DNA of 55,376 nt. It comes from Escherichia coli (GTDB lineage: Bacteria; Pseudomonadota; Gammaproteobacteria; Enterobacterales; Enterobacteriaceae). Shown here one piece after another: positions 1 to 15,243 of the stretch (positions are counted from its first letter, which is position 1; each line of letters begins with the position of its first letter). The position numbers and the translations under genes were made by a program. A model generated the notes under the pieces. The model saw only the letters and a program-made list of their open reading frames with translations, was not told where the DNA came from and made no database searches. The stretch is from NCBI RefSeq assembly GCF_003334255.1, contig NZ_QOWU01000035.1. One strand, written 5' to 3'.

Positions 1-77
1 AGTTATCGTGAGAGTAATTCATCGGCACGTTAAATCATATCAGGCGTAATACCACAACCCTTAAGTTAGCGCTTATG
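1..77 (-). mobile_element. Terminal segment of IS186 (partial; element continues beyond the window start)
   Basis: Reverse complement of 1..77 reads CATAAGCGCTAACTTAAGGGTTG..., which I recall as the 23-bp terminal inverted repeat of IS186 plus adjacent internal sequence; the cheB reading frame is broken exactly at position 77/78. Confidence 0.65.
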
Positions 78-980
78 GGTCCATGCCCCCGCCTGACGCA
101 TCGCCAACATTCCTGCCGCGCCGTCGTTGCCCATGCCGGTCAGGATCACCCCAACCGCATTACGCCCCGCCTGTTTGGCGACAGAATGGAACAACACATC
201 TACCGAAGGCCGATGACGGTTAACCGCCGGGCCATCGTGAATTTTGATTTGATAATTTGCGCCACTACGCGCCAGCTCCATATGCCGATCGCCCGGCGCG
301 ATATAGGCATGTCCCGGCAAGACGCGCTCTCCGTCTTCGGCTTCTTTAACCCCGATCTGGCAAAGCTTATTAAGTCTGTCGGCAAAAGAGCGGGTGAAAC
401 CGGGCGGCATATGCTGGGTAATTAACAGTGCCGGGCTGGAAAGCGGCAACGGTTGCAGTACGTGACGAATTGCCTCAGTTCCACCCGTTGAAGCACCAAT
501 CGCAATCAGTTTTTCAGAACTCAGCAACGGCCCCGCCTTCAGCGTTGTCGGTGCCGACAATGGCTTATGTGCTGCAAGGCTCGCCTTTGCTGCCGTACGC
601 ACCTTTTCAGCAATCATTTCGCTATACGCCAGCATACCTTCGCGAATACCCAGTTGCGGTTTGGTGACAAAATCTATCGCCCCCAGCTCCAGCGCGCGCA
701 GCGTAACTTCTGACCCTTTGCCGGTCAGGGAAGAAACCATCACAACGGGCATTGGACGCAAACGCATTAATTTTTCGAGGAAATCCAGTCCGTCCATCCG
801 CGGCATTTCAACATCCAGCGTCAATACATCGGGATTGAATTTCTTAATCAAGTCACGCGCAACCAGCGGATCAGGCGCGGTCGCCACCATTTCCATGTCG
901 CTATGGCTGTTGATGATTTCTGTCATGATCTGGCGCATCAGTGCCGAATCATCGACAGATAACACCCTGATTTTGCTCAT
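78..980 (-). pseudogene. cheB: Chemotaxis methylesterase CheB, 3'-truncated after codon 301 by the IS186 insertion (the ORF runs into the IS as ...[12 protein letters not shown])
   Basis: Translation [19 protein letters not shown]... matches the CheB receiver and methylesterase domains; canonical CheB is 349 aa, so the last ~48 residues are missing and replaced by 3 IS-encoded codons. Confidence 0.85.
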
Positions 981-5201: not shown

Positions 5202-5228
5202 TTATCGGCAAGGAAGGGGGAAACTTTA
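5202..5228 (-). promoter_or_regulatory. Sigma-28 (FliA) class 3 promoter for the tar-tap-cheRB operon
   Basis: Minus strand reads TAAAGTTT-N11-GCCGATAA, a perfect match to the sigma-28 consensus, about 30 bp upstream of the tar start. Confidence 0.75.
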
Positions 5229-5254
5229 TTGCTGATGCCACCCGCCGCGAAATT

Positions 5255-5288
5255 GAAATAAAAAACCCGATGCGCAGATCATCGGGTT
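5255..5288 (-). terminator. Intrinsic terminator downstream of cheW (end of motA-motB-cheA-cheW operon)
   Basis: GC stem CCCGAT/ATCGGG followed by a U-run on the minus-strand transcript. Confidence 0.6.
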
Positions 5289-5314
5289 CATTTCAATTGA
5301 GGAAATCAGGAGAA

Positions 5315-9744: not shown

Positions 9745-10323
9745 TTAAACAGCCTGTACTCTCTGTTCATCCAGCAGTTGTGGGATAATATCGGCAGGAT
9801 TCTGGGAAAGTTTACGTCTTTTTACTGCCCGGGATGGCGGTTGACATAAGCTGCAGGCAAAGCTGCCAACAGGCTGGTGAGCGTGGGTAATAAAATTGCC
9901 GCCGCAGCAGTTGCAGCTGGAAAGTTGCAGTAATCCACTTTCAACAAACCGCACCAATGTCCAGGCACGGGTTAATGCCAGCAGCGGTCCTTCTTCTGCT
10001 TGCGGGCACTGTTCAAGGTATAAACGGTAGGCTTTGATCACCGCGTCGACGCCATTACACAAACCGGTTTTCAGTAAAAACTGCCATGCATTACAGAACA
10101 TCGAAGCATGAACGTTTTGTTCCCAGGTCATAAACCAGTCGGTTGAGAATGGCAGCATGCCTTTCGGCGGTGGGCTTCCGCGCAGTTCTTTATAAAGTTT
10201 TATCAGGCGTCCGCGACTTAACTGTGTTTCGCTTTCAAGCATCTGCAAAAGAGCGCCCAAGGTGATCAATTCCATTGCCAGCTGAATATCCCGCGCTTCC
10301 TGAACAATGCTTTTTTCACTCAT
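9745..10323 (-). CDS. flhC: Flagellar master regulator subunit FlhC
   Basis: 192-aa [27 protein letters not shown]...; Cys-rich zinc site present. Confidence 0.96.
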
Positions 10324-10325
10324 GA

Positions 10326-10676
10326 TCAGGCCCTTTTCTTGCGCAGCGCTTCTTCAGGCTGATTAACATCATTCAGCAAGCGTGTTGAGAGCATGATGCC
10401 GGTATGAATTTGCTGGAGATCGTCAACGCGGGAATCTTGCGTCAACTGAGTAATCGTCTGGTGGCTGTCAAAACGGAAGTGACAAACCAGCTGATTGGTT
10501 TCTGCCAGCTTAACCATTTGCGGAAGAGTCAGTGCCGCTAATGTTGTCGCCATTTCTTCATTTATGCCGAGACGAAACATAGCGGACGCTTTGTCCTGAA
10601 CAATCAGACGCTGTGCAAGTAGTAAATATGACAAGTTGATGTCATAAATGTGTTTCAGCAACTCGGAGGTATGCAT
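10326..10676 (-). CDS. flhD: Flagellar master regulator subunit FlhD
   Basis: ORF trimmed to [24 protein letters not shown]... (116 aa). Confidence 0.94.
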
Positions 10677-11455
10677 TATTCCCACCCAGAATAACCAACT
10701 TTATTTTTATGCGGTTTCACCGCACCCCGTGATGTCGCCGGGAAGCCCCGGTAAAAAATAATTAGCATTAGAATAGTTGCGATAAGCTGCAATAAGCAGA
10801 GCCACCTTTTTGGTTTAATAAGTCCTTACAAATAGAAGGGGGTCTTTACACTTATCTAAGATTTTTCCTAAATCGACGCAACTGTACTCGTCACTACACG
10901 CACATACAACGGAGGGGGGCTGCGATTTTCAATAATGCGTGATGCAGATCACACAAAACACTCAATTACTTAACATAAATGTATAAGTCATACTTTTGTT
11001 TTGGGTGTATTTCAATCTGTTAAAAAGTTTTTCGCTACGCTAGCAAGCAAAAATGAAACAGGAATAATCGAAATGGGATGTTGCGCACAGTTAAAATAAC
11101 TCACCGTAAATAATCATCTGCTATAAATAATCACTTTCATGCAATACCAGATAAGCTATTTTTAAACAGACACTTACCGCACAACAAACTAATTAAATAC
11201 AAAGAAAGGCAACAATCAACTTTATGTTAATAAAATGTTTTGCATATATTAACCACTTGTTTAATGCGGAGAATCAGTACATTATTTTCTTATAATTACA
11301 GTTGAAATCATATGATCACCGAGAGTGATTGATTAATTGTCTTTACTAATAATCAGACTAATATTTACCTGTTTGACTGAGTTGGGATTGCGTCGTTTCT
11401 CCATTAGGAGTAAAGCTTTAATGTCACCTGAAGTTCACAGAATAAGGAACAGGTT
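10677..11455 (-). promoter_or_regulatory. flhDC class 1 promoter, long 5'UTR and upstream regulatory region (shared divergent region with uspC)
   Basis: About 780 bp of AT-rich non-coding DNA upstream of flhD with no ORF of note; established as a multi-regulator input region. Confidence 0.7.
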
Positions 11456-11884
11456 ATGAGCTATAGCAATATTCTTGTCGCTGTTGCGGTTACACCGGAA
11501 AGTCAGCAACTGCTGGCAAAAGCGGTATCTATCGCCAGGCCAGTAAAGGGACACATCAGTTTAATTACTCTCGCTTCCGACCCGGAAATGTACAATCAAT
11601 TAGCTGCGCCGATGCTTGAAGATTTACGCAGCGTGATGCAGGAAGAAACGCAAAGCTTTCTTGATAAGTTAATTCAGGATGCGGGGTATCCCGTTGACAA
11701 GACGTTTATTGCCTACGGTGAGTTAAGCGAACATATTCTGGAAGTATGTCACAAACATCATTTCGATTTGGTGATTTGCGGTAATCACAATCACAGTTTC
11801 TTTTCGCGAGCATCCTGCTCGGCGAAAAGAGTGATTGCCTCAAGTGAGGTCGATGTGCTGTTAGTTCCACTTACGGGAGATTAA
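11456..11884 (+). CDS. uspC: Universal stress protein C
   Basis: 142-aa ORF MSYSNILVAVAVTPESQQLLAKAVSIARP...; UspA-family fold; position between flhD and otsA. Confidence 0.9.
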   Translation: MSYSNILVAVAVTPESQQLLAKAVSIARPVKGHISLITLASDPEMYNQLAAPMLEDLRSVMQEETQSFLDKLIQDAGYPVDKTFIAYGELSEHILEVCHKHHFDLVICGNHNHSFFSRASCSAKRVIASSEVDVLLVPLTGD

Positions 11885-11890
11885 CCGCTC

Positions 11891-15243
<3,353 letters not shown>

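Follow-up and report, generated by a model that had tools for sequence, protein, structure and literature searches.

The stretch of DNA analysed here, called the window throughout, comprises 55,376 nucleotides of Escherichia coli sequence and is collinear with the MG1655 chromosome from inside cheB (1,967,598) to inside fliR (2,023,547), except in the fliC-fliD region, which is allelic, and in a variant segment spanning 41.3-44.3 kb. Motility genes make up about 26 of these 55 kb, and using tblastn we found cheR, tap, tar, cheW, cheA, motB, motA, flhC, flhD, fliZ, fliA, fliC, fliD, fliS, fliT and fliE to fliQ to be full length, with no stop codon or frameshift. Within the fliC-fliD region (33656-36368) the intact fliC is a short allele of 349 aa whose central domain is much shorter than that of K-12, and the product of the intact fliD shares 79% identity with K-12 FliD. 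The variant segment (41215-44300), which MG1655 lacks and about every second complete E. coli genome has, often at 100% identity, carries IS200/IS605 tnpA, a TnpB fragment, ybcM, ybcL and emrE; yedK is truncated at residue 142 and the yedN region did not align, and no match to yedL was found in the window. An Rfam match to the sRNA C0465 (111.6 bits) lies at 5218-5295 in the tar-cheW intergenic interval, on the strand opposite to the che genes. An open reading frame of 167 aa near 18.6 kb was considered as an internal IS1 and rejected, the frame being ftnB. The two ends of the window lie 76 and 77 nt into multicopy IS elements, in a manner resembling assembler k-mer overlaps, and the window probably represents one whole short-read contig with repeats at its boundaries; a near-identical contig of 55,461 bp is present in GCA_965136505.1. 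The features on which the following analysis rests are collected in Table 1.

Table 1. Features of the flhD-uspC region and of the two IS junctions, in window coordinates
Feature	Position	Strand	Basis
IS186 left end adjoining cheB	1..76		100% identity to K-12 IS186A end (match given to 1-79)
cheB, truncated: 301 of 349 native residues kept (1-301), followed by HKR-stop from the IS186 terminal repeat	66..980	-	tblastn
flhC, intact, 192 aa, 99.5% identical to K-12 FlhC (191/192)	9745..10323	-	tblastn
flhD, intact, 116 aa, 100% identical to K-12 FlhD (116/116)	10326..10676	-	tblastn
flhD-uspC divergent intergenic region, complete and uninterrupted	10677..11455		ungapped alignments, flanking ATGs
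flhDC 5' untranslated leader, 198 nt; putative transcription start 10874	10677..10874	-	homology
Core flhDC promoter: candidate -35 TTGTAT 10904-10909, candidate -10 TACAGT 10881-10886; same as K-12	10881..10909	-	read from sequence
cAMP-CRP site TGTGA-TCTGCA-TCACG, centred at -71.5	10938..10953	-	sequence
Empty K-12 IS hot spot: IS5 target TTAA 10970-10973 and IS1H target 10974-10981	10970..10981		W3110/MG1655 alignment break points, PMC5100188
A+T-rich upstream silencer zone, about 28-36% G+C	10970..11350		reported range of activating IS insertions, -96 to -476
uspC, intact, 142 aa	11456..11884	+	tblastn
fliR, truncated after residue 218 of 261	54645..55304	+	tblastn
IS1 end, inverted repeat GGTGATGCTGCCAACTTACTGAT...	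55300..55376		100% identity to MG1655 IS1H end

The whole flhD-uspC intergenic region is 779 bp long and lies between the flhD ATG at 10676 and the uspC ATG at 11456. When it was aligned with the corresponding region of E. coli G1/2, all positions paired (779/779) with 0 gaps and 1 substitution, which amounts to 99.9% identity. The same interval measures 1,555 bp in MG1655, where it contains IS1H according to the K-12 annotation, and 1,978 bp in W3110, where it holds an insert of about 1.19 kb bearing an IS5 transposase gene, the identification as IS5 resting on this gene annotation and on the size of the insert. On removal of IS1H or IS5 together with one target copy each interval was reduced to exactly 779 bp, and both IS-less versions aligned with the window over 779/779 positions, ungapped, with 14 substitutions each and no indel. 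From these ungapped alignments it follows that 10677..11455 contains no partial IS, deletion or duplication scar. The preliminary description had held that a flhD-uspC region of about 780 bp is uninterrupted here and that K-12 laboratory strains carry IS1 or IS5 upstream of flhD; the first statement stands against G1/2 and the IS-less MG1655 and W3110, the second agrees with MG1655 and W3110 as they are, and pairwise alignment with IS-bearing and IS-free strains together excluded any hidden IS fragment or deletion. In window coordinates the alignments broke at 10974-10981, the target of IS1H in MG1655, and at 10966-10973 for the IS5 of W3110, and both the IS1H target and the IS5 target TTAA are single-copy and unoccupied in the window.

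An IS-activated flhDC allele would carry an element between about -96 and -476, and none is present there, the corresponding DNA (10970-11350) being unbroken. What we found are the properties of a native IS-free flhDC control region, namely full-length collinearity with IS-free references, the presence of the core promoter, the transcription start region and the CRP site, and flhD and flhC with reading frames intact, neither of which had stops or gaps in the tblastn alignments. We are highly confident that 10677..11455 is such a native control region, with the arrangement that the large majority of natural E. coli have; as such, the IS-free control region of the window is wholly a matter of already known biology. 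The continuity was read from an assembled contig, in which a low-frequency subpopulation with an IS upstream of flhD would be invisible. It could also be argued that a real IS upstream of flhD was lost or collapsed by the assembler, given that the window looks like a whole short-read contig with both ends inside multicopy IS elements. Multicopy IS elements, however, break short-read contigs, as they did at both ends of the window, and do not vanish from the interior of a contig; the region is moreover continuous and indel-free against the references, and the same contig was recovered in a second, independent assembly (GCA_965136505.1), whose sequence is identical to the window through at least 10980. 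We consider such an artefact extremely improbable, and the native, uninterrupted control region is taken as the basis of what follows.

The transcription start of flhDC was placed by homology, the K-12 AsflhD annotation ending 198 nt upstream of the flhD ATG, and a start at 10874 puts the TTAA at 10970-10973 at -99..-96, which is the published IS5 target (PMC5100188). The -35 and -10 hexamers are candidates, read by eye from the letters. Between the window and K-12 there are zero differences from -218 to +35, a stretch which covers these hexamers and the CRP site. Four of the substitutions relative to K-12 fall in the leader (+36, +37, +54 and +74) and are all common to G1/2, and the ten far-upstream ones are natural polymorphisms likewise common to G1/2. 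A generic consensus promoter scan did not detect the flhDC promoter, which is expected, and uninformative, because this promoter is weak and activator-dependent; an Rfam search gave no match within 10677..11455. The A+T-richness of the upstream DNA (28-36% G+C) fits the silencer role ascribed to it in PMC5493358, and the dependence of flhDC on CRP is established (Soutourina et al. 1999, as cited in PMC5493358).

Combining K-12 knowledge with the sequence identity, we infer that a weak sigma-70 promoter would start transcription 198 nt upstream of flhD, at window position 10874, and that its activity would depend on cAMP-CRP bound at -71.5. H-NS, LrhA, OmpR, RcsAB and other regulators would be expected to damp this promoter by way of the A+T-rich upstream DNA and the leader. 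An IS1 or IS5 placed at -96 to -476, as in K-12 laboratory strains, would lift the damping and lead to constitutive motility; with no IS present, flhDC of the window is predicted to remain under ordinary, condition-dependent control.

We then asked how common an uninterrupted region is among complete E. coli genomes. A 451-nt core across the hot zone was covered to at least 80% in one piece in 5,244 of 5,426 genomes and was split between two places in about 145 of the 5,426, and the full 779-bp region gave one full-length match in more than 5,200 genomes. The exact IS1H junction of MG1655 was present in 60 genomes and the exact IS5 junction of W3110 in 57; these two K-12 laboratory alleles make up about 117 of the roughly 145 interrupted genomes, and other interruptions are found in only about 0.5% of genomes. 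The IS-free share is about 97% of complete genomes, rising to more than 99% when the two laboratory alleles are set aside. Since about 97% of complete E. coli genomes are uninterrupted too, the absence of an IS in the window is uninformative; the empty site upstream of flhD is the default, ancestral state and carries no signal on selection for hyper-motility. Stimulatory IS insertions upstream of flhDC have been reported at several positions, with IS5 at -99..-96 (TTAA) and further sites as far as -476 (PMC5100188, PMC5493358), and they are described as appearing on motility agar in K-12 strains of poor motility (PMC5493358, PMC5100188, PMC5289928). Activating flhDC insertions are thus essentially a K-12 laboratory phenomenon, and the present result guards against over-reading a negative observation.

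From cheB to upstream of flhD, a distance of 10.9 kb, the window and the commensal strain G1/2 differ only at 10938, where the A of G1/2 is replaced by G. This position corresponds to -64 and is the final base of the right CRP half-site. G, which makes the half-site TCACG, is present in the window, K-12 and strain 203740; A, which makes it the consensus TCACA, is present in G1/2, EDL933, BL21, Nissle 1917 and four unrelated contigs, and the 61 nt around -64 were matched exactly by only 399 of 5,339 complete genomes. As judged from sequence comparison, G at -64 is the minority allele, with A in most E. coli, and on the haplotype of the window it is probably derived. Owing to this G, the flhDC promoter of the window may be somewhat weaker than that of its closest relative G1/2. 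A literature search on point mutations in the flhDC CRP site did not find the -64 polymorphism, and CRP goes unmentioned in two papers on motility. It may be added that the identity with G1/2 drops abruptly near the start of uspC (about 11400-11600): a single difference over 10.9 kb gives way to a divergence of about 1% beyond about 11.5 kb, a step suggestive of a recombination boundary in or close to the flhD-uspC region.

It is conceivable, and we put it forward only tentatively, that the region is structurally intact and functionally down-tuned, the A-to-G change at -64 lowering cAMP-CRP-dependent transcription of flhDC to a state like that of poorly motile, IS-less K-12. This idea is encouraged by the isolation of the change as the one difference from G1/2 in 10.9 kb, by the A found in EDL933, BL21, Nissle, G1/2 and the four unrelated contigs together with the scarcity of exact 61-nt matches, and by the location of -64 inside the CRP site centred at -71.5. 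However, -64 is the outermost base of the TGTGA pentamer of CRP, which is its least critical one, and any effect may be slight; the G could also have come from a K-12-like donor by gene conversion of a short tract; the observation was made post hoc; and with fliR broken the change would be of no phenotypic consequence for motility. As a natural polymorphism the -64 base could contribute to baseline motility differences between strains. If down-tuning were true, G at -64 in K-12 and in this clone would be a low-expression state, helping to explain why IS-less K-12 is poorly motile, and the A-to-G change in this clone would count as a third independent motility lesion. For the arrangement of the region, the native IS-free control region described above remains our reading.

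At the left end of the window cheB is cut by IS186, an element of the IS4 family which NCBI PGAP labels 'IS421 family' in E. coli genomes. The element was recognised by its 23-bp terminal inverted repeat CATAAGCGCTAACTTAAGGGTTG at the window start and by a target of the G-run/N6-7/C-run type, for which the duplication is about 10-13 bp. The cheB target GGGGGCATGGACCC reads GGGGG-CATGGA-CCC and spans cheB codons 297-301, and the flanks of K-12 IS186A, GGGGATCACTCCCC, represent the same type of target (GGGG-ATCACT-CCCC). In a relative, L008, the insertion in cheB is a simple one with a 13-bp target duplication GGGGCATGGACCC, and the rest of cheB, cheY, cheZ and flhBAE continue past IS186 (junction region 10890-12250); the full IS186 copy of 1.34 kb in this strain is 99.85% identical to K-12 IS186A. 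The insertion probably has polar effects on cheY and cheZ.

The exact truncated CheB protein is present in 41 blocks of public assemblies, and the cheB::IS186 junction was absent from all complete RefSeq E. coli genomes searched. The carriers differ from the window at 107 to 169 positions over 10.9 kb and from one another at up to 191 (about 1.7%), and one pair of them is K-12-like, with 10-11 differences from MG1655. In L013 and L015 the cheB IS186 lies in the opposite orientation (junctions of L011-L015 near 10900). IS186 accordingly occupies the same cheB site in five or more unrelated backgrounds, and it does so in either orientation. A single ancestral insertion marking one lineage was ruled out, as the carriers diverge to about 1.7% and two of them have the element in opposite orientation. 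The insertion is best explained by the target preference of IS186 together with recurrent independent insertion, and not by a lineage-specific selective event; it is recurrent but rare, since no complete RefSeq genome carries it. A consensus target of IS186 and a hot spot within the promoter of lon have been published (SaiSree et al. 2001, as cited in PMC3045373), and no report of IS186 in cheB was found in the literature searched. The 55-kb window contains only two GGG-N6-CCCC sites, one of them the cheB junction; the other, at 45104-45116 inside fliF, is unoccupied and is a potential IS186 target. In other cheB::IS186 strains tap shows frameshifts or a deletion of 1.36 kb (L008 7520-9119, L010 7519-9119, L012 8893-9012), unlike the window, in which tap is intact. 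Loss of chemotaxis could commonly come about through this recurrent target of IS186 in cheB, and the recurrence calls for caution when IS insertions are read as evidence of selection.

At the right end of the window FliR is left without its last 43 residues. The element here was identified as IS1 from its terminal inverted repeat GGTGATGCTGCCAACTTACTGAT and the adjacent sequence, one IS1 end only being visible as the window stops there. Every contig in which we found the fliR::IS1 junction was identical to the window, and the insertion is therefore one event within a single clone. FliR is a core subunit of the export gate FliPQR. From what is established about flagellar biology, cells without FliR would fail to complete the hook-basal body and to export FlgM, class 3 genes would stay off and the cells would be non-flagellate; motility in this clone is probably abolished downstream of flhDC. 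Once the export gate is broken, an activating IS upstream of flhD could not improve motility and would be unselectable, and the absence of an IS is therefore no evidence about selection in favour of hyper-motility or against it.

The preliminary description was right in noting that IS elements interrupt cheB and fliR (IS186 at 1-76 and IS1 at 55300-55376). From this, and from the empty site upstream of flhD, it had gone on to suggest that selection in this lineage has been against motility or chemotaxis, a step which does not follow, the empty site being the default, the cheB site behaving like a hot spot and the fliR insertion confined to one clone, with no other decay. We regard it as unlikely that the lineage was selected against motility or chemotaxis, with IS elements accumulating in cheB and fliR as the flhD upstream site stayed empty. 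In its favour one may cite the disruption of two motility genes within the window, the fact that the sole SNP relative to G1/2, over 10.9 kb, moves the flhDC CRP site further from its consensus, the tap frameshifts or deletion of L008, L010 and L012, and the loss of flagella as a known convergent trait of host-restricted E. coli and Shigella lineages (PMC7373316). On the other hand, an empty flhD upstream region is what about 97% of genomes have by default (more than 99% without the two K-12 alleles); an IS186-type target hit in at least five independent backgrounds and in both orientations bears the signature of a mutational hot spot; the fliR insertion is one event in one clone; and the remaining motility genes are all intact. 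Where motility genes fill about 26 of 55 kb, two insertions are unremarkable once purifying selection is relaxed.

Because the other motility genes are full length, the loss of motility would be recent. Relaxed constraint, drift or laboratory passage explain this loss as well as selection does. The fliR block, which would make an activating IS unselectable, and the CRP-site SNP speak for the preliminary description, but neither of them distinguishes selection from neutrality in this case. Selection may have acted against motility, but the data do not favour this over relaxed constraint combined with a mutational hot spot. Taken jointly, that cheB codons 297-301 form an unremarked IS186 hot spot repeatedly yielding chemotaxis-defective E. 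coli, in the wild or in culture, and that the -64 A/G base is a natural tuning knob of motility is a speculative proposal, which we hold to be rather improbable in this combined form. The recurrent IS186 target in cheB, the -64 polymorphism and the putative recombination boundary near uspC are to be seen as minor leads.

Compared with known systems, the region agrees most closely with the native IS-free flhDC-uspC regions of G1/2 and O157:H7, which have the same 779 bp and the same order of elements and align without gaps, at 99.9% identity for G1/2 and 99.5% for O157:H7, and from which the window differs at -64 in having G and not A. With MG1655 (IS1H) and the W3110/RP437/MC1000-type strains (IS5) the window shares the flanking DNA, an identical stretch from -218 to +35 and the G at -64; unlike these motility-activating alleles, it is without an IS. 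The cheB junction resembles the hot spot at the promoter of lon in E. coli B and K-12 (SaiSree et al. 2001, as cited in PMC3045373) in the element, IS186, in the G-run/N6/C-run type of target and in the recurrent use of one site in either orientation; the target in cheB, however, is intragenic and insertion there inactivates the gene, whereas the lon hot spot is a promoter which insertion silences. Finally, in Shigella, as in the window, IS elements inactivate the motility regulon, and flagella have been lost there through an IS1 in flhD in the case of S. flexneri and through one in flhC in that of S. dysenteriae (PMC5100188, PMC7373316). The window differs from Shigella in having a master operon and a flhDC control region free of insertions; it is fliR and cheB that are interrupted, and elsewhere the regulon shows no decay.
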